Counted from the first letter of the stretch, positions 25,201-38,105 are shown. The stretch is DNA of 64,000 nucleotides from Ophelia neglecta (GCA_965285935.1 OZ260661.1:144026001-144090000); one strand, 5' to 3'. The notes: generated by a model from the sequence alone, not told the origin. Numbers and translations are program-made.

Positions 25201-26632
25201 GGCATGTCTGGATTCCAATCTAGGAACCTTTGGTTACTACGTCACAGGATCGGAAAACATGGGTTTATCACGTACCCAATGTCTTGCTATCCAATAGTTT
25301 TATGTTAGAGGGGGGGGGGGGGGCATTTTGAGTCAAGAGACTTGCTTACCTTAGACACAGGGACCTACGTGGCTGATAGACGGAGCTGGGAGATTGATGA
25401 TTGAGCGCCTGGATATTGGTGTATGTATTCTCCATGACCCATATGTGAATATCAAGAGAGTCGTTTTGTTTTTTACCGGACAAAGGCGGCAGACAACAAA
25501 TTTAGCTCTTAAATAAGGCGAGTAGTATGGTGCCCTCTATCGAAGTGGAACACAAACAGAGGTGCGCAGTAATTTCCTCACGCAATTCTGGCAATTAGTG
25601 TCCGTGAAATATAACCCAAAACAGAGTAACACAACTTTACTCTAGATTATACGAATCAAACGTTTGTTGATAACCAGGTAACGTGATGTGATTTCTGACG
25701 ACCACGGTGGTCATCAGGATACGAGCGGAGTGTTAGTTTGTGTAGGTAACTATTCGTCGTTTATTATGACCAATTAAATACATTGTGGATTACAATAATA
25801 AACCACATATTATAAATATCAATATGACGCCAAATTCAATTAACGCATTAAGACCCTTAACAGAAAAGCTCATAGACTGGACTTTGATGTATCCGATGAT
25901 TACTAGTCAATTCATCGAGGTCTATATTAATATTATTATTGTGCTTCAATTGCGTAGACCTTTATCAGCATAATTTTTCAGACGTCATCAATTTCAAAGT
26001 CGTTGGAATCATATCGACATAGTTTGGATTGAACCTTTAACAATGCAAATTAACACTGATAAAGCTATATACTATTCGTTACTTTACCATTTTCTATTCT
26101 ATTGTAAGGAGGTGTTGGGTAAAACTTCTGATAATTACCTTATGCCGTTAGACATTCTACAAAAAAAGATGCATTTGCAACATTGCTGGGTAGTTTGTGT
26201 CACACCACTAGTCTATTCACAAAATTTAAAATCCCCCCAACCCCTCTAGGCAATTATATACTTAAACAAAATTTAAAAAGCACTTATATATATCTATAAA
26301 GTTTATTTGTTAATGTTCATGTCACAGTATTATCTGTATTTTGTTGAAACCTTCCGTAATTCGTATCTTGTAGCAGACGTATGCTCATGCCCAATACACA
26401 CTTCCTCATTCATGTACTTCTGCCCAGCCAAAAAACAGTCCTTATAGAAAATTAAAACTCTTTGGTCATCGATATAACAATGGATTCTGATAATCACGCT
26501 TATCCCACTAGAAATGCTGGCATGTTTTATATTCCAATATTCAACTTACCTTTTTATTTAATTCAGTTAGATCCCCCAAGCGTCCTTATTTTTAATAACA
26601 TACATGATAATTGTGTTTGAATATTCCACTAC

Positions 26633-26733
26633 GGCTGTCAACTCTAATAACAAGTCTTTATACAAACCCCACAGCCTGGCAACTCTCAATACAAGTCTTT
26701 ATACAGACCTAAACGCCTGGCAACTCTCAATAC
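26633..26733. repeat. About 39-40-bp satellite, first block
   Basis: Unit CAACTCTCAATACAAGTCTATATACAGACCTCAACGCCTGG; continues at 31219-31540, 36660-36774 and 37681-37750. Confidence 0.9.
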
Positions 26734-26982
26734 TTAAAAATTATTTTCGTTTGAAGTATGAATTAGAAAATAATTGGTTTATTAGCACCTAGACACATCG
26801 TCTGTATGCCCAGGTGGCAAAACCGGTCCTGTGTACCGGATTAGCGGAATGCCTGGCCGCCAGGCGACTGTTCGCTTGACCGAACACCGGTCCTGCAGGC
26901 TGCCAGGCCTGGCAGCCTGGCCAAGTCATTCTCGGTTTGACCACCAAGACGACAGCACGCTGCCCAAACTAAACAGTCCGCC

Positions 26983-27660
26983 ATGACAGAGGAAACTTCG
27001 AGCCACAGCGAACTTACAGCCTTCAAAGAGGAAATTGTAAAAGATATAGTCGCAGCGGTATCTAAGAAGATAAGGCTGACCAAACCGGACACACCAAGTC
27101 TGCAGTGGAAACGACCAGGCCATAAAAAGCAGTTTGATTTCAACACTTCCATCAAGTCGTCACTCGTGGAAGCAAAAGAAGCCATTTTGGCCCAAGACCC
27201 GGACACCGCCAATGAGCTCATAACCGAAGGTATCACAAATATTGTTCAACGAAATAAACTCCTTCGCATAGCTGACCAGACCCCAAACGGCTGGGACGTC
27301 GTAGAGGAATATTCCAACCGTCCTATCGCCGAGGATTCCGACGACGACCGAAAACTACGAAAAGCAGAAAGCGTAGTTAGAAAAAGGAAAGAATACGAAA
27401 GGAAGAAAAGTAGCTACGCACGCAACTACTCGGCAAGACCCTATTACCAGCGCTTCCAACCACCTTTTAGACCTCCTTACTTTGGCTCTCCGAGCACACG
27501 GCCGTACCCGACCTTCCCAAGGGCGTTTCCTCCGACCACCAGATTCCCGCAGGCAACTGACGTGTGCCATTTCTGCGGGGCCCTCGGGCATTGGCAATCA
27601 CGCTGCCCAAAACGACTCGCTTCCCTCTCCGAAGCCGCCGAAAAAAGGGGCCAAAATTAG
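26983..27660 (+). CDS. Gag-like ORF of the YR retrotransposon (225 aa)
   Basis: RNKLLRIADQTPNGWDVVEEY...AEDSDDDRKLRKAE motif and the CCHC knuckle CHFCGALGHWQSRC. Confidence 0.88.
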   Translation: MTEETSSHSELTAFKEEIVKDIVAAVSKKIRLTKPDTPSLQWKRPGHKKQFDFNTSIKSSLVEAKEAILAQDPDTANELITEGITNIVQRNKLLRIADQTPNGWDVVEEYSNRPIAEDSDDDRKLRKAESVVRKRKEYERKKSSYARNYSARPYYQRFQPPFRPPYFGSPSTRPYPTFPRAFPPTTRFPQATDVCHFCGALGHWQSRCPKRLASLSEAAEKRGQN

Positions 27661-27722
27661 CGCAAAAAGTTAAGTAGAAAACTTTTTATCATATTAAATT
27701 AACAAGCGCTATATAATTTAAC

Positions 27723-28467
27723 ATGACCGAACCACCACAAACCGGTAGCTCGGCATTGTGCACAAGTGATTTTTCCAACTATGAAAAAACAAATCGCCCC
27801 ATATCTGTCAAAGGTAGATTAAAACAAAATATAGAATTTTGGAAGTCGATCAAGGCTTCTAAAGAAATTCTCAAAGTTTTAGAGTCCGGTTACATAGTTC
27901 CTTTTGTTAGTACTCCCCCTCCTAATAACTTAAAAAACAACAGATCGAGCCAAATAGAACCGACCTTCGTGCGGCAAACAATACGCGATTTGCTTGAAAC
28001 CGGCGCCATTATTAACATGCAGCACCCGCCCAAAGTGCTCAATCCTCTCACGGTCGCAACTAACAACAGCGGCAAGAAAAGACTCGTGCTTGACCTCCGA
28101 CACATCAACAAATTCGTATATAAGAGAACCTTCAAATACGAAGACATGTACACGGCCCTTACATACGTCAAGAAGGGTTCCTACATGTATACTTTCGACT
28201 TAAAATCCGGATACCACCATATAGATCTAGCAAAAACCCAATGGGAATATTTCGGCTTTAGCTACCCAAACAGCGACGGTAAGACAAAATTTTACGTGTT
28301 CACCGTCCTTCCCTTTGGCCTATGTTCAGCCGGCTTAATTTTTTCCAAAGTAGTGCGAGAACTGGTTAAACACTGGCGATCCACCGGTTTGCAAATAGTA
28401 ACAAATCCCTCTTCGGTTCAAAAAACAACACCGGGCATTCCATGGCATTACTACTAGATTTCAGATA
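27723..28467 (+). pseudogene. Truncated DIRS-type reverse transcriptase (pol internal deletion)
   Basis: KKRLVLDLRHIN, FDLKSGYHH and FTVLPFGLCSA are present. Homology stops at WRSTGLQIV (about 28400), just before the expected YxDD. A pol-like tail KSLFGSKNNTGHSMALLLDFR* follows in another frame. Confidence 0.85.
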
Positions 28468-28645
28468 GGCCTATAAGCCGGTAAGTAAAAAACAGCTCGG
28501 ACACTTGTCAGGTTTATCCAAACGAGCACTAGACCAAAAGCCAAAGGGAGATATGTTATAACACCATTAACTATAAGAACAGCCAAAAGGCCGCCAAACC
28601 TTACCAAGGCTCAAAATAATTAAAAAACGTGGTCTTCTGAAATAT

Positions 28646-28854
28646 ACGGACACGACTCAGGATCGTGGTCCTTTATAACAGACGGACACGACTCAGGATC
28701 GTGGTCCTGTATATCAGACGGACACGACTCAGGATCGTGGTCCTTTTTTATTAGACGGACACGACTCAGGATCGTGATCCTTTATAACAGACGGACACGA
28801 CTCAGGATCGTGGTCCTTTTTTAGTAGACGGACACGACTCAGGATCGTGGTCCT
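28646..28854 (+). repeat. Six-copy 36-37-bp hairpin repeat array inside the YR element
   Basis: ACGGACACGACTCAGGATCGTGGTCCT at 28646, 28682, 28718, 28755, 28791 and 28828, with 9-10-bp AT-rich linkers. Confidence 0.95.
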
Positions 28855-28974
28855 TTGTAACATCTAAATACAATTCAAGCTAATAGTTATCTTAAAACGC
28901 CCACCTGCCTTCACTTCACTATACCGATCGCTTATATTATATACTATGATATTAAATTATTTTTTTCTCCACAG

Positions 28975-29993
28975 AAATACTAAGGCGGCCTAAGGACGAA
29001 TTCAAAAATTTAAAGGATACTAAACTAAAAGACATCGCATCCACTTTGCCCGACGTACTTCTAGCCGGCAAGGCGCCAAACACCATAAAATCCTACGGAG
29101 GAGGGTTTCACCGGTTCAAAAACTGGACAAAGAATTTCACGGAGCTCAGTTACCTCCCTGCAAACAGCACCTCTATAACTCTTTACCTGCTCGCCCTGGT
29201 ACAAGAAGGAAAATCCCCAGGAGTGCTACAAAACGCCTTTGCATCAATAGCTTGGGCACACAAGTTAGCATGTCTACCAGACCCTACTCAAAATACAACC
29301 ACTAAGCTCGTACTAGAAGCCGGCAGGCGTATCAACGGGAAGCCGGTCGAAAAGAAAGACATCGTCACCCCAGAAATTTTGCAAAAAATCGTAGCACTAA
29401 GCGGAAAAAATATGAATAATACGCTCGCCCTAAGAACAGCCGCTATGTGTCTCGTAGCCTTCGCAGGTTTCCTCCGTTTCAACGAGCTAGCCAATCTTAG
29501 AAGATGCGACATCGCCTTTTTCGACACGTACATGTCACTATTCATCGAACACTCCAAAACTGACATTTATAGGGATGGAAAAACCCTAGTCATATCCAGG
29601 ACCAACACAGATTTATGTCCAGTCAATTTACTGTATCTTTATTTCACCAGAGTAGGCCTTAACATATCAGTTGAATCCGATGAGTTCATTTTCAGAGCAA
29701 TGAGTTTTTGCAAACGGAGCGGTCAGTACAGGCTCAGAAGCGGGTCCCGGCCACTCTCATACTCGACCGTCAGGGACCTTTTTAAACAATCTCTTTCTTT
29801 AGCAGGTTTCGAAGCAAAGAATTTCGGCCTACATTCCCTAAGAGCAGGCGGCGCTTCGGCCGCCGCTAACAACGGCATCACCGAGCGCATGTTCAAACGG
29901 CACGGCAGATGGCGGTCGGAATCCGCCAAGGACGGCTACGTGAAGGACAAACTAGAATCCAGATTAAACGTAACTCTATCGCTGGGCCTTTAG
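28975..29993 (+). CDS. Tyrosine recombinase exon, intact
   Basis: Catalytic residues in FLRFNE, SKTD, HSLRAGGA, HGRW and DGY. The frame is open back to the acceptor TTTTTTTCTCCACAG at 28974; no ATG at the start. Confidence 0.92.
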
Positions 29994-31218
29994 GAAAAAG
30001 CACATGGCCTGGCAAATACCCCGCCCTATCTCTCATTTGTAGTAAACGAAGATTAAATTTAAATTTCCGCCGAATTGAATTCCTCCCCATGTATTAGTCA
30101 AGGCTTTCGTGGTATTAAAAAATAAAGCATTCTTTAACAAATACTATTCATTTCCTTCTTACAGATCTCCAGCAGAAGCCAGAATGGGAAACGAAATAAA
30201 AATTTGCCCACTATCATTCAGGTCTCAACCACGGGCAGTTTGTCTCGGTCTTTATGATCTCGGCAGCCACACTCTGGTCAAGCCATACCAACAGTTGGTC
30301 TCACTAAATTACTTTTAACACGATGAGTCTGGCGACAATAATTAAAAATTATTTTCGTTTGAAGTATGAATTAGAAAATAATTGGTTTATTAGCACCTAG
30401 ACACATCGTCTGTATGCCCAGGTGGCAAAACCGGTCCTGTGTACCGGATTAGCGGAATGCCTGGCCGCCAGGCGACTGTTCGCTTGACCGAACACCGGTC
30501 CTGCAGGCTGCCAGGCCTGGCAGCCTGGCCAAGTCATTCTCGGTTTGACCACCAAGACGACAGCACGCTGCCCAAACTAAAAAATTAGGTTTATATCAAT
30601 CAGTTGATTAATCGTATCGAACGCGGGCAGAAAAGCAAATCATAAAGATAACCATAATAACGTACTCTTCTCATTACAGACTACTTATAAGCATCATACT
30701 AGGCCTATGACACGCAAGCGCGTATTACAGCGGCGGCTTCAATAACATCACAACTATAGGCCGCAGGCCCAGTCATTTCTCTTTTAAAGTGTTTAATTTC
30801 GATTTCATGGGCTTTTAAAAATCCAGAACCTCAGAGCATGCGCTTGATAACTGTAAAAAGGGCGTGTGGGGCTCGCTTCCCTGAATTTAGTTGGTGCCAA
30901 ACACCCCAATAGTTGGTTCATGGATCGAGATCTACACGTTCTTCAGTTATTGTAAAATTGGGTCTGGACACCTCCCCAAATTTTCCTGCTTTAGGTCAGG
31001 TTTAAGGGGTTGGGTGGCCGTGCGAATGCTAAACTTCTAAGCCCTATATTTGTTGTACGAACATTTTCGCTATCAACAGGCGTTGATTAAACGAGTACCA
31101 TTGGTTTTGAACAATCTGTACATAACGTTGCAATAAACGGCAGCCACACTCTGGTCAAGCCATACCAACAGTTGGTCTCACTAAATTACTTTTAACACGA
31201 TGAGTCTGGCGACAATAA

Positions 31219-31540
31219 AAGTCTATATACAGACCTAAACGGCTGTCAACTCCCAATACAAGTCTATATTCATACCCCAACGCCTGTCAACTAATGAAAG
31301 TCTACATACACAACTCAACGCCTGGCAACTCTCAATACAAGTCTATATACAGACTCCAACGGCTGCCAACTCCCAATACAAGTCTATGTACAGACCACAA
31401 CGCCTGCCAACTCTCAATACCAGTCTATATTCAGACCCCAACGCCTGTCAACTCTCAATGAAAGTCTACAAACACAACTTAGCGCCTGGCAACTCTCAAT
31501 ACAAGTCTATATAGGCTCCAACGCAATTCAACTCCCAACA
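31219..31540. repeat. About 39-40-bp satellite, second block (about 8 units)
   Basis: Same unit as 26633-26733; resumes exactly where the YR element interrupts it. Confidence 0.9.
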
Positions 31541-31851
31541 CCAGTTTGGAGACCGAGCGTTGTGGTGTAAACGACGTTCCCAACTAACGTGTCCTGGATT
31601 GATTATATCAATTTGGTTAAACTAAAATAAACACTTAAAGAAATACTTGGGAATTAATGTTTAAAATTCTAATAAGAGTGGGGATATTCGTTTTGAATGG
31701 TTTTGGTATGAATGCTGGACAATTCGTTGCCTCAGAAGACACGTGATATTTGGATGTTTATACGAATTCAGGTAGATTTCACTGTATTTTTTCTGTGAAA
31801 GTTAGTTAAATGGGTACTCTAGGAAGAAACAGTGTTTGCTTCTCATAAGTT

Positions 31852-31977
31852 ATGCAATCACCCAAGATAATTAGCAGAATTAATACGCTGTTCTAGGGTT
31901 TCAAAACTAATCATTACACAGCTCTGAAACCCTAGAACAGCGTATTAATTGTCCTAATTATCTTGGGCGATTGCATG
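31852..31977. repeat. Long palindrome/hairpin within a dispersed repeat
   Basis: TGCAATCACCCAAGATAATTAGCAGAATTAATACGCTGTTCTAGGGTTTCA ... TGAAACCCTAGAACAGCGTATTAATTGTCCTAATTATCTTGGGCGATTGCA (arms of about 50 bp); an inverted partial copy lies at 37321-37450. Confidence 0.9.
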
Positions 31978-32098
31978 GACGTGATTAGTTGTCCATCATA
32001 TTAGTTGTCCTTCAGATCTTCTTTTTCAATTGATTAACATGTTGCCTTTTTTTTTTTTTATTATATATATTTTATTAGAAATAAAAACAACCATGCTT

Positions 32099-35000
32099 TT
32101 AACAGTCGTAGCCCTTACATACCCACATGGTCAGGGGGTTTGAGGCTATAGTGATATTTCTAATTTTTTTCTCATTTTCATAACAGATAGACAGGTTTCC
32201 TGAATTCCCATACTTAAATTTAGTAATGCAAAGCTTCCCAATGAAAAGGAGTGCATTAACAAGTTTATATGAATTACGTGTACATTTTTCTTCGGGTATT
32301 CCGAACAGAATTTCGACCTCACTTAATTTAATGCGTTGTACATTTGTTAACATAATGTCGGTTTCTACAGTTTTCCATAATACAGTTACAGACTTGCAAA
32401 AGTAAAAAAAGTGATCAATAGTCTCCGTTTGGTTACAATATTTACATGTATCATGATCCTGTATTTTTATCTGTTTTAGATATGTACCTACAGGATAAAT
32501 TTCTAAAATGATTTTCCACTGCAACGTAACTATTTTAGGTTCTCCATTAGATGACAGTATGGCTCTTTCTAAAGTTTCTGGACAATTACTAACAGCGCCA
32601 TATTTTTCATAGTAACGTTTTGACAATATAACCCCTTCACATGGATAAATCAGATGCAGAATAGCCGTCTTCATCATCGATGAAGTATATTGTTCTATGT
32701 TAACACCACATAGCTGTATATCTTTAATGTTTATTGCATCTTCCACCTTACATAAATTTGTCTCAGTTAGAGCATTGCGGACTATATTCAGTTCCCACTG
32801 AGTACTACTATTGTCACCAAATACACTATATATTTTTTCATAATTGAGCACATTATTCTGTATTATATCATGGACGTATAAAAATCCATTTTGGATCCAC
32901 CGCCTTACAAAAATAGGGGAACCTCGGTACGTGATACATTTGTTGTTAAAAAGATAACATGTAGTTTTGTCTGTATCAACATGGTTTGTATCAATCCAGT
33001 CGAACAGAAGAATTTTCCAAAATGAGGGAATATAATCCACAGAATTCATCCCCCTGAATCCGGATGAAACAGTATTACAGTTAAACACGCTCAAGTTGTT
33101 ACCAAAATGTGCATAAAAAGAATTGGGTATAATTTTCCATAGTTCATCACCTTCACGTAAAAGCTTAGTAATCCATTTAAACTGAAATTGGGTTTGAATA
33201 ATTTTCAGATCAGGCATGCCAGGTCCACCTTTGTTAACCGCCTGGATTACTATTCTTCGTTTAACCCTCTCTGTAACCTTCTTGCCACTAAGACTGTTCT
33301 CGGACCTAAGAAATTTAAAGAAAAATGAATTGATTTTGTTTAGAACTTCGTTTGGATATCTAATGCACTGCATAATATATGTAAATTGGGAAGCTAGTAG
33401 GGATTTAATTATGACAACTTTCCCATACATTGTCAAATGTCGTTTGGACCAGTTTTTAATTATATTTTCACACACTCCCAATCGTTTAGTCCAGTTATCG
33501 TCACATCTACCTGCCACAGTAGAGCTACTTAACGTTACACCAAGGATTTTGACAAGATTATTAGGATATATTTTCCATTTTATGTTTTCGATTTCTTTTC
33601 GACGGTACTTCCAACAGCCGAGCCACATGGCTTCTGTTTTGGATTTATTCAGCTGCAAACCGGATATAATATGAAAACTGTGTATATATTTTAGAAAAAA
33701 TTGTAGAGATTCTTCGTCCGCCAGAAGGCCTGTGCTGTCATCAGCAAATTGGAGCAGTTTCGCTTCTCTTTCAAACATTGGCAGTTTAATGCCTTTATTT
33801 TATCACATTTCCGTATTTTAATTGAACAAATTTCTAAGGCCAAAATAAATAATACTGGTGACAAGGGACATCCCTGCCTGATACCTCTTTCGAGGGGTAT
33901 AATCTTTGTGAACCATCCGTTATTTATGACTTTAGCTACATTGTAACTGGTTAATGTCTTCACCCATCCTATGAACATTTGCGCAAAATTGAACTTATGA
34001 AGACACGTCAGCATAAAAGATTTTGAAATAGTGTCGAATGCTTTCTTATAGTCGATAGCTACTAATATACCAGGGAGCTGCTTGATGTCTAGATATTCTA
34101 TAATGTCATCGAGACCTCTAATAACATTTCCCGATGATCTTCCTTTGATATAGCCCGCTTGATCTGTTGATATCAATTTATTAATGACTTGGGAAAGGCG
34201 CGTTGCTAGTATTTTGGCAGAGATTTTATAGTCAATGGTTGAAAGTGCTAGAGGCCTCCAATTACTCAATTGTTCTCGTGGCTGATTTTTTCCTTTATAG
34301 AGCAATCTGACTATGCTTAACCTTTGACTAGGTGATAAAAAGCCCTTTTGGTAACCAATATTGAGTGAATCTCTCACAATCGGCCCTAATACTCCCCAAA
34401 TCACCTTATACCATGCCGCAGTTAAGCCATCTGCCCCTGGGCTTGAATCGTTCTTCATAGCGCGAAGCGCTTCTGAACATTCCCTAAGTGTAAAAAGACC
34501 CTCACATGATTCTTTTTCTATATCATTTAGTATAGGTATTGGAAGGTTTTCAATAAACTTATTTAAAGTTTCGTTCGGGAAATTATTCGGTTCTGTATAC
34601 AGGTCTTTATAAAACAATTCAATATGATTCAAAATTTCAGTGCGGTTTGTAACTTTATGGTCATCACTTTTAGCCAGAATTTCTATGTTGTTACTATTTC
34701 CCCGAGCTTTCTCTAGGCCTAGAAAATATTTAGTATTCTTCTCCCCTTCCATAACCCATTTTTCTTTTGACCGTAACTGGGCACCCTTTGCTCTCATAAT
34801 TTCTGTTATCTCTATTTGAGACTTAATGTCATTTAAATGTTGTATTATTACTTCATCATTTGGTTTTTCTAAGAGTTTTTTATTATATACAACCATATCT
34901 ACCTGCAACTTCTTTTCGACTTGTTTTTGTGTAGCCGCTCTTGATAGGCCGTATTTTTGAGACTCATCATTTACTTTACGTTTTATTATTTCCAGAAGAA

Positions 35001-35850
35001 GGTCTGGCGGGGTTCCGTCATTTTCTGAAATGACGTTTGCTAACAGCTCGTTTATTATATCTATAAATTGATTTTCCCTAAGGAAGGAGTTATTTAATTT
35101 CCAATAGGATGGTCCTCTTTTTTGTTTGTTACATGCATATCTCATGAAAACGCCCCTATGATCAGTCATGGGTAAATCCATGATTCCTATGTCATTAATT
35201 TCACCCAATGTTATTTCATTAGCAAATTTATAGTCTATTCTGCGAATTATGTAACATGATTTGTGCCGCCAAGTGTACTCTTTAGTATCAGGATGAAAGC
35301 TTCTAAAAACATCCTCTAGCCGTTCGACCATACCTCTAAATGCTGTAACCTCACTTGTAGGGTGGTTGTTTCCCCCGATTATATCCAGTTTTGGCTGCAA
35401 CGTGCAATTAAAGTCCCCAACTACAATTATTCTACAATCAGGGTAAGTGTCTAAGACTCTCGCAAAATGATCTTTTACCACATTGAAAAAAATTAGTTTC
35501 TGGGCAGTTGGACACGGTGCATAAACATTAATAAGTACATGACATACATTTTCATAATCAAACTTAATAGCCAGTAGCCTGCTTTCTGATATAATTTCAA
35601 CACAATTCTGGCAAGACTCGTAGAATTGGGCACTAAGTAATATCATCTCACCTTTACTATGAGTTGAACCAGCCACATAAAACACTTTACCTTTCTATCT
35701 AGATTCAATGTCGGGTATGTCCTGTTCAATTATGTGAGTTTCCTGAAGGAATACCACATCAAAATGTTGTTGCACAAGCGCTCTCAATATAACAGCACGC
35801 TTAATTTTCCTTTTCAGTCCGTTCACATTGATTGTAATAATATTAACCAT
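32099..35850 (-). pseudogene. LINE ORF2 (APE endonuclease, RT, C-terminal Cys/His domain) with two lesions
   Basis: MVNIITINVNGL...FLQETH from the ATG at 35850; TAG at 35697-35695; VYAP, GDFN, RIDY, TDH; NWRPLAL, IDYKKAFD, RQGCPLSP; frameshift near 33780; QFADDST; CKYCNQTETIDHFFYFC. Confidence 0.92.
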
Positions 35851-35957: not shown

Positions 35958-36518
35958 TCATCCTTTAGCTACCTTTTCTTTTTTATTATTATCACGCATG
36001 GGTGGTGTTACATCTTTCCTCTTGCTTTGTGTTTTTCCAGGCTTAGGAGTGGATATATATCCAGTTATTTCTGGCTGTGTGTTGTCTTTTTTCTGGGTCT
36101 TGAGGTTTTTTTTCTCAGCTTTGGTAAGTTTCTTTTTCTCTAATTTACCGGCGCCTATAACATCAGATTTAGCAGGGACTTTGTCATGTGGTCCGTTCTC
36201 GGCAGAACTGATAAGACCATTCTCATCCTTGTCGGAGAGCTCAGCAGCGTGGTTGTTATCTATATCAATCGATTCATTCTCATCGCTACTGCTATCCTCC
36301 TTCGTTGAAGTTATGGAGGCTCTATCATCTTGAGTTTTGCTGCTTTCCACACGATCTAGGGAATCATGGACAGACTCGTTAGGCTCCTGTAGTATATTTG
36401 TGTTTTCTTGGTTGCTATTGGGAACAGGGGCAGTTTGAGGAAGGTTGTTTGCTTGATCAGGGATAGCAGAGACATTCATGGTTGTTTGCCGGGATGGACA
36501 CTCTAGAAGGGAATGACC
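35958..36518 (-). pseudogene. C-terminal, low-complexity part of LINE ORF1
   Basis: Open acidic/Lys-rich frame ending KRKDVTPP...KG* just upstream of ORF2; the track's start at 36572 lies outside the TSD. Confidence 0.7.
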
Positions 36519-36774
36519 ATTAACATGTTGCTCACGCATCAAGTTTCCATCGAGGCTATTTGGAGGAGCCAAGTTTCAAAATTGTTCACGGGAATCCTAT
36601 TTAGCCAGGTAGAAAGTTGGGACGTACAACGACTATTTATATAATGATTATTCTCAAAGCATTGCAACTCTAAGAACAAGTCTATATACAGACCTCAACG
36701 GCTATCAACTCTTAATACAAGTCTTTATACAAACCCCATCGCCTGTCAACTCTCAATACAAGCCTATAAACATA

Positions 36775-37680
36775 CAGTCCAGGAACCCGTAGGGGTCAGG
36801 GTAGCTGGAAAGGTAATTATATTGTTTCCAAGGGTCAATAGCACTACATGGGCAAGCTACCCTATACTACCAGACTCATAATAATGTGCACTGGTATCCC
36901 TTTCCAACTACTATACTCTGTACATTGTTATACTGGAAATAAATTGTAATCTTTAGTGATATTATTGTTAAATAAAGCTCTGAATATGAGAGGTTGGGAT
37001 GTCTGGCAGGCAGTGACAATTCATGGCACCTAAGACCATGCCAATCATTTCCGACTAGGTTTCATCAGGTTACCTCATGAACTGATCTACCTCAATTGGA
37101 GGGGGGTCATTCCAGGGTGTCTGGTGGGCAAAATCCACCACTCAAAATGTCTGGCAGTGTTCATTCATGACACCTAGGACTATGCTGAATATTTTCCACT
37201 TGGTTTCATCTGGTTACCTTCCGAGCCGGTGTAGCTCAATTTTGGGGGGCAGGATCATTCCAGGGTGTATGGCGGGCACAGCCCACCACTTATAATGTCT
37301 GGCAGTATTCATTCATGACACATGTAAACTTGATACGTGAAGAAGCATGTTAATCAATTGAAAAAGGACAACTAATATGTTGGACTACTAATCACGTCCT
37401 TGCAATCGCCCAAGATAATTAGAAGGGTTTCAGAGCTATGTAATGATTACATACAATGACACCTGGGACTATGCTGAACATTATCCACTTGGTTTCATTT
37501 GGTTACCTCACATGCCGGTCTAGCACAATTTTTGGGACCCCTTGTCAGGTCCCTCGCGACCACACCCACCATAATCAGCCCGTCCATTTCCTTAAATGGT
37601 TATCCACATAGAGCTTTGTTATATACCTGAAAATTGGTTACTGTTCCAGCTACCCTGACCCCTACGGGCTCCTGATCTAA
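36775..37680. mobile_element. MITE with TA target duplication (Tc1/mariner-like), inserted in the satellite
   Basis: Inverted repeats CAGGAACCCGTAGGGGTCAGGGTAGCTGGAA (36780) and TTCCAGCTACCCTGACCCCTACGGGCTCCTG (ends 37674); TA at 36773-36774 and 37681-37682; removal restores a satellite unit; internal repeats of about 120-150 bp. Confidence 0.8.
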
Positions 37681-38105
37681 TACCTCAACGGCTGGCAACT
37701 CTCGACACAAGTCTATATGCACACCTCAACGCCTGGCAACTCTCAATACTCTAGTTTCCAACGAGGCTATTTCGACGAGCCGAGGTTCAAATTTGGGACC
37801 TTTTGGGGTCCCGCGTTATGGTGTCACGTGGTCATATCCGATCCATTCGTTAGGGAAGCAAGCCTTGAGATATGATTGGGAATAAAATTAATCACATGAT
37901 TCTTATTTAGCCAGGTAGATAGTTGGGACGTATAATGAGTATTCTCAAATTAATCAGGATGGCTAATTTATTTGACAGACTTCATGAACATACGCATTAG
38001 TTATTCCTTAAATGCGAGCCTCTAGACTGTCTAAGTGTATGTTACAAAGCTTCTACGGGCAATGAGAACATTTACCGACTGTGCGTTTTCTACGGCCGCT
38101 GAGTA

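Follow-up and report, generated by a model that had tools for sequence, protein, structure and literature searches.

The tyrosine recombinase (YR) of a 4.5-kb YR retrotransposon in Ophelia neglecta is very probably expressed from a spliced subgenomic mRNA, in which a donor within gag (D1, after position 27229) would be joined to an acceptor at the start of the YR frame (28975) to encode a 421-aa fusion of Gag residues 1-82 to the recombinase. The element lies in a 64,000-nt stretch of O. neglecta DNA, hereafter the window, to which all coordinates refer; the element found there is called the window copy. It encodes Gag, a pol remnant and the YR, and is bounded by split direct repeats. A spliced gag-YR subgenomic mRNA had been predicted by the first-pass annotation, and the prediction is now supported at the sequence level by selection on the splice sites, by gene models in three phyla and by footprints in genomic copies.

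Table. Features of the window copy; a slash within a motif marks the predicted cut.
Feature	Position	Strand	Details
Split direct repeat A1 (left end)	26728-26973	+	100% repeat of 30336-30581; element start near 26731-26736
Predicted shared exon 1, coding part	26983-27229	+	247 nt = 82 codons + 1 base; ends GAAG/GTATCA
gag ORF	26983-27660	+	225 aa, CCHC knuckle; ATG at 26983; zf-CCHC E 4e-4
Donor D1, AAG/GTATCA	27227-27235	+	phase 1, in Gly83 codon; cut 27229/27230
Donor-like site D2, AAG/TTAAGTA (or AA/GTTAAGTA)	27667-27676	+	9 nt after gag stop
pol remnant (RT start)	27717-28468	+	ATG at 27723; intact-frame stop 28466-28468; 1,234 nt lost at 28402/28403
Strong donor D3, CCG/GTAAGT	28478-28486	+	after pol stop; cut 28480/28481
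Tandem array, pol-YR spacer	28634-28860	+	about 6 units of 36-37 bp; within predicted intron
YR acceptor	28960-28974	+	polypyrimidine tract + CAG, phase 1; TTTTTTTCTCCACAG/AA at 28974/28975
YR exon	28975-29993	+	338 aa past junction; Phage_integrase PF00589 E 1.4e-8; no initiator ATG
Internal repeats B1 (30261-30341) and A2 (30336-30581)	30261-30581	+	TAATT junction between them
Split direct repeat B2 (right end)	31138-31218	+	100% repeat of 30261-30341; sister-copy flanks diverge

The repeats follow the order A1..B1-A2-B2, in pairs of 246 bp and 81 bp that are each 100% identical, and at the left end the flanks of four sister copies diverge. The sequence at the element ends and at the internal TAATT junction is similar to that of the target flanks, a likeness expected if a circle integrates by recombination, as in the established model. 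The YR is encoded on the same strand and its catalytic motifs (GFLRF, HSLR, KRHGRW, DGYVK) are intact. The part of pol that was deleted is RT, RNase H and methyltransferase sequence, most of the methyltransferase being lost from the window copy; three of four sister copies retain the full pol region and the fourth, L009, has a deletion of its own. In the sister copy L008, with intact pol, RT, RNase H-like and Dam-like methyltransferase domains were found. The Dam match (PF05869; E 4e-4 in L008, 1.5e-4 in L074) is under the Pfam gathering score and within the E 0.01 cut-off used in the accessible text of PMC3783388, and a PHROG DNA methyltransferase matched with E 3.6e-5.

By its predicted domains the element is PAT-like and not Ngaro, because a Dam-like methyltransferase is present (definitions from the accessible parts of PMC4157794 and PMC3783388). 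The label Ngaro/PAT given at first therefore holds in its second half and fails in its first. A1..B1-A2-B2 repeats, a methyltransferase after RT/RNase H, a Gag zinc knuckle and a same-strand catalytic YR are all found; the RT tree took in the families of this genome alone, and the PAT placement rests on these features. Assignment to Ngaro fits the split repeats with internal repeats after the YR but is contradicted by the Dam-like domain. A DIRS1-like element was also rejected: the ends are direct repeats, and of the 38 inverted repeats the 25 longest include no terminal pair.

The element sits in a 41-bp tandem repeat array (26586-26749, 31194-31559) that recurs at 36653-36816 and 37682-37750. 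On the minus strand, 32099-35694 contains two long frames that by eye resemble a non-LTR retrotransposon's endonuclease-RT, and a further frame lies upstream at 35958-36575; these frames are flanked by 59-bp inverted repeats (31852-32012 and 37364-37449), one of them in a 57-bp hairpin. Within the element, the number of tandem units in the pol-YR spacer varies between sister copies.

Within the YR frame (28956-29993) no in-frame ATG occurs before 29412, at residue 146 of 338. When D1 is joined computationally to the acceptor, the product stays open for 421 aa, from the 82 Gag residues to the YR stop at 29991-29993. The first-pass annotation had described a YR without initiator ATG behind a phase-1 acceptor at 28974, a phase-1 gag donor GAAG/GTATCA at 27229/27230 and an open fusion of 82 gag residues to the YR, and the frames and coordinates agree with it on each point. 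It had also invoked the splice to explain why the YR survives the pol deletion. This argument was dropped: the YR frame is separate, lying some 570 nt downstream, and its survival needs no explanation, and the sister copies without that deletion make it irrelevant. The deletion is not itself a splice, since it removes 1,234 nt relative to L008, has ends that are not GT-AG and is private to the window copy; the L009 pol deletion was likewise rejected as a splice.

Taken alone, D1 is a weak donor. It ranks fifth of 91 GT sites in 26728-28960, with 0.7 bits compared to 6.5 bits for D3 at 28481, the best-scoring donor in the element (scores from a rough weight matrix of approximate frequencies), and both D2 and D3, which lie between D1 and the acceptor, are stronger. 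Conservation among the nearest copies was rejected as evidence, because the four to five compared are 95-99.7% identical to the window copy and hence uninformative. D1 rises above chance only through cross-family comparison.

For this comparison 46 YR-element loci were fetched from the same genome, the Gag proteins of the compared families being about 30-45% identical, and 40 of them allowed the D1 column to be mapped. Gly is found at this column in 29 of the 40 loci, with G/GTA in 29/29; the other 11 have neither Gly nor GT there, one being a decayed copy with GAT and 10, from a single clade, carrying other residues. With one representative per family, GGT followed by A occupies the D1 codon in 11/11 Gly-bearing families, a test that is conditional on Gly and made on related families, the control columns showing scrambled synonymous sites. 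Those controls, 40 other conserved Gly columns in Gag, Pol and YR, reached at most 7 GGT and 5 GGT+A, and the background over 610 Gly codons was 194 GGT (32%) and 53 GGT+A (8.7%). Since a constraint on Gly leaves the third base and the first base of the next codon free, D1 is probably selected as a donor. Further loci gave GGT in 10/10 Gly rows in one set and in 12/15 in a second, where the exceptions (L266, L287, L297) are GGC or GGA and two of them have stops nearby. Among 26 Gag cores mapped in 80 metagenome contigs, 12 carry Gly at D1, all as GGT and from about 5 families, and 14 do not. These metagenome D1 sites are mostly strong donors (AG/GTGAGA, AG/GTAAGA), and each of the 12 loci has a phase-1 acceptor at the YR start.

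A YAG with at least 7 pyrimidines in 12 opens the YR in 15/15 families, the chance of which is about 0.05 each. The acceptor is in phase 1 in 12 families and in phase 0 in 3; no conserved branch-point motif was found, YTRAY being present in 7/15 families. D1 and acceptor are both in phase 1 in every D1-bearing family with an intact YR start, and in the 8 families with both D1 and an intact YR copy, the frame produced by a computed join at D1 stays open over 336-339 aa. Conservation had been named at the outset as the check on both splice sites, and they are indeed kept in position and phase across diverged families. These comparisons show that D1 and the YR acceptor, as putative splice sites, are under selection across diverged families. 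The predicted Gag-YR route is not universal among families, because of the D1-less loci and the three families with a phase-0 acceptor.

Predicted gene models from other animals contain the same junction. Four amphioxus RefSeq proteins (XP_078665737.1 and kin) run from the Gag N-terminus to the D1 codon and then continue into the YR, and the sponge model Em0005g258a and the hemichordate model XP_077866782.1 have the same Gag-YR join at the D1 codon. A Gag profile built from this genome alone matches the amphioxus, sponge and hemichordate N-termini with E values of 7e-6, about 3e-4 and 2e-6, respectively. The profile search returned no longer proteins with the Gag N-terminal profile, which is weak evidence, and no relatives were found in viral contigs. 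In scallop and abalone models the YR is joined to a different upstream peptide, by eye the +1 frame of gag. Many gene-called YR homologues start with an F/L-rich stretch ending in FSD, FTD or similar, which is the translated acceptor; a predicted YR protein with such a false hydrophobic N-terminus, P0028, is labelled bacterial. Many database YR entries thus have false N-termini that are translated polypyrimidine tracts.

Spliced retrotransposon RNA would sometimes be copied back into the genome, and such intron-loss copies would be a record of splicing independent of RNA. Close copies within the genome were compared for precise losses, 126 loci being fetched. L285 contains a GT-AG intron of 115 nt for which the D1 codon provides the donor; this intron is precisely absent from L278 (99% identical) and L280, and its loss leaves Ala at the D1 column. 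L195 is without exactly the stretch from the D1 GT to an acceptor that is that of the downstream gag intron. Two sister families have a phase-0 GT-AG gag intron, which measures 236 nt in one (L113) and 183 nt in the other (L085, L086), and L083 and L299 are precisely without the 236-nt form. The gag intron lies about 140 nt after D1 and interrupts the frame (L113, L084, L085, L086, L089). To judge from these frames, the L113 and L085 families keep an intron whose predicted splicing is required for Gag production. The short gag intron that uses D1 in one family could explain part of the D1 conservation. The Ala at the D1 column and the AAG/CA junction of L278 and L280 are also seen in L099, L100, L104, L282, L284, L293 and L295, a family that may be descended from spliced RNA and have lost D1 in this way.

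The YR acceptor has left a footprint with D2. In L233, a copy from another family, the sequence just past the gag stop is followed immediately by the first codon of the YR, the register being that of the nearest family's acceptor (58-59/90 nt identical at shift 0), and L235 and L236, 93-94% identical to L233, continue AAAAG/ATAAGT at the same joint. For L233's own family no unspliced YR acceptor turned up, and template switching, given a 3-nt overlap, is an alternative origin for the joint. Clean deletions of at least 40 nt between close copies have GT..AG ends in 4/35 cases, D1 being the starting point in two of the four. The 126 loci, with 12 matches for the window exon 1 among them, include no processed copy of the D1-to-YR type, and the 80 metagenome contigs include no spliced form. 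Contigs from three sequencing runs of unknown kind, which look like DNA and count neither for nor against splicing, show nothing resembling a splice joint on the window element or in family L074. As read from the genomic copies, these losses show use, in related families, of the D1 donor with an acceptor other than that of the YR, and of the YR acceptor with a donor other than D1.

D2 is itself a conserved feature. A U1-complementary motif is present 15-85 nt after the knuckle in 15/15 families; the fitted pattern turns up a single time in some 31 kb of pol, and the unfitted core T[ACG]AGT is also found in 15/15 families versus 0.12 expected per search window. The core is present in 21/25 metagenome loci and the AG/HTRAGT form in 16/25. 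In five families of one clade, in which gag and pol form a single frame, D2 is a canonical T/GTMAGT, and the computed D2-to-acceptor join makes TAA or TAG at the junction in 5/5 of these. In families with their own gag stop the +1 base of D2 is A, C or T, and the non-GT forms are AG/ATAAGT, AG/ATGAGT, AG/CTAAGT and AG/TTAAGT. The alternative reading of the window D2, AA/GTTAAGTA, is presumably a known atypical splice-site type. Shifted U1 registers exist, according to the accessible text of PMC9311317. The chances seem to us about even that PAT-like elements across animals have two donors and one acceptor, the non-GT D2 being either spliced or a holding site for U1 that protects genomic RNA. 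In such a scheme the mid-gag donor would yield Gag-recombinase and the gag-end donor would yield Gag alone, writing the stop in single-frame families. If two donors are indeed used, a transposon would naturally and selectively employ non-canonical 5′ splice sites, and these elements would offer a natural system with a conserved non-GT donor that is apparently used.

The L233 joint also bears on the best-surviving alternative, that the acceptor serves D2 only for a Gag-only mRNA, D1 being a U1-binding or short-intron signal and the YR being translated by re-initiation, from a non-AUG codon or from the ATG at 29412. The sole YR-acceptor join seen in a genomic copy is that D2-to-YR joint, both D1 footprints use acceptors within gag, and near-cognate codons lie at 28977 (ATA) and 29034 (ATC). 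However, a start at 29412 would lose 145 of 338 residues, and the first Met ranges from about residue 27 to 148 between families. The phase 1 shared by D1 and acceptor in D1-bearing families with an intact YR start, and the models from three phyla that join at D1, also argue against it; we consider it improbable.

A second alternative joins the YR, by way of D2 or a frameshift, to a +1-frame peptide from the 3′ half of gag, a frame that extends pol upstream. The scallop and abalone models (RefSeq XP_033762818.1 and XP_071114719.1) have an N-terminal peptide of this kind, its frame assigned by eye; the L077, L078, L092, L094 and L098 families have a +1 frame of 140-166 codons into pol, and D2 cut one base earlier fits the phase-0 acceptors of L092, L094 and L098. 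In the window family, however, the +1 frame ends at a TAA inside D2, which closes the route there, and for the window copy this origin of the YR is very unlikely. The +1 route may operate in families without D1, which would need another way to express the YR, perhaps the long +1 frame ending at D2. The +1 frame over the gag 3′ half encodes a hydrophobic stretch in L076-L078, L092, L094 and L098 (13-residue hydropathy 2.0-3.4), and the window family is without it. This stretch may be due to chance, because L105 and L088 score equally high without an open frame.

Equally slim is the prospect of a short first exon without coding content, provided either by the strong donor after pol (28481) or by a promoter inside the spacer. 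The donor CCG/GTAAGT at 28480/28481, raised in the first-pass annotation as an alternative, does exist, is the top-scoring one and is kept in L074, L075 and L107; it can give no coding fusion, because of an in-frame TAA at 28474 and the lack of an ATG before the join. GTAAGT near the end of pol was found only in L008, L074, L075 and L107, the closest kin, among 18 loci tested, being absent from the other 14, and in 1/37 metagenome loci. Finally, that the splice sites are chance matches and the conserved Gly a protein constraint has next to no probability and is largely refuted already by these comparisons: the window donor alone is unremarkable and the nearest copies (95-99.7%) are uninformative, but a constraint on Gly fixes neither the third base nor the first base of the next codon, and precise GT-AG losses begin at D1.

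Under the favoured D1-to-acceptor splice, unspliced RNA would be both genome and template for pol, a demand that would favour a weak D1. Splicing from D2 to the acceptor would make Gag alone with the same acceptor as the YR, and in single-frame families the stop codon of Gag would arise where the two sites are joined; splicing from D1 would make Gag(1-82)-YR. A comparison of 24 loci revealed no common acceptor through which D1 could be joined to pol. The Gag leader would supply the AUG and might bring the YR into the Gag particle. In the predicted Gag a helical hairpin spans the donor codon, codon 83 being mid-helix (AlphaFold model, pLDDT 86); a fold search with the Gag core matched nothing more specific than generic helical hairpins (best Z 7.8). 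Because D1 falls mid-helix in this hairpin, the leader may tether the YR to the particle. If the YR is made by the D1 splice, a Gag leader would be part of the integrating enzyme, with consequences for its biochemistry or reconstitution. The L074 family, judged by its copies, is recently active: 11 copies on five contigs have near-identical YR scores, 10 of them with a 348-aa open frame.

On YRs without a start codon, the accessible literature mentions only frameshifted or overlapping frames and leaves the question unsettled. Spliced YR expression is not described in the accessible parts of PMC7192593, PMC2632668, PMC6681497, PMC4157794, PMC8547959 and PMC3266345, nor in those of PMC3783388, PMC9210276, PMC13465315, PMC5580714 and PMC9311317. 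A full-text literature search, within the text it covers, returned no paper on this YR splice; Repbase notes or supplements could mention it. The predicted spliced Gag-YR is well supported; within a known class of elements it would be a novel mode of expression, although its absence from print is not established.

With the Pat1-like (PAT) elements of the order DIRS the family shares the A1-ORFs-B1-A2-B2 layout, the gag zinc knuckle, RT/RNase H/methyltransferase and the same-strand YR (PMC4157794). It differs in its predicted spliced expression, the YR there being described, in the accessible parts of PMC3783388 and PMC3266345, as only possibly frameshifted or overlapping. Ngaro elements have in common the repeat layout, the internal repeats after the YR and non-overlapping pol and YR. 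They are without methyltransferase as far as the accessible text of PMC4157794, PMC3783388 and PMC13465315 goes, whereas the Ophelia family has a Dam-like domain. In Ty1/copia elements (Drosophila copia, Arabidopsis EVD, barley BARE1), a splice from a single gag-pol frame gives a Gag-only mRNA, and this splice makes the stop, U1 binding there also blocking early termination (accessible text of PMC5580714). The predicted D2-to-YR join would do the same. It differs from the copia type in that the acceptor would also serve an upstream donor for the integrating enzyme, in that the junction itself forms the stop, and in that many families have a D2 without GT. The env genes of retroviruses and gypsy and the pol of foamy viruses are likewise downstream genes expressed from a spliced RNA, with the unspliced RNA as genome. 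The predicted product here differs from these in being a YR led by 82 Gag residues, with the cut falling midway along a predicted helix of Gag.
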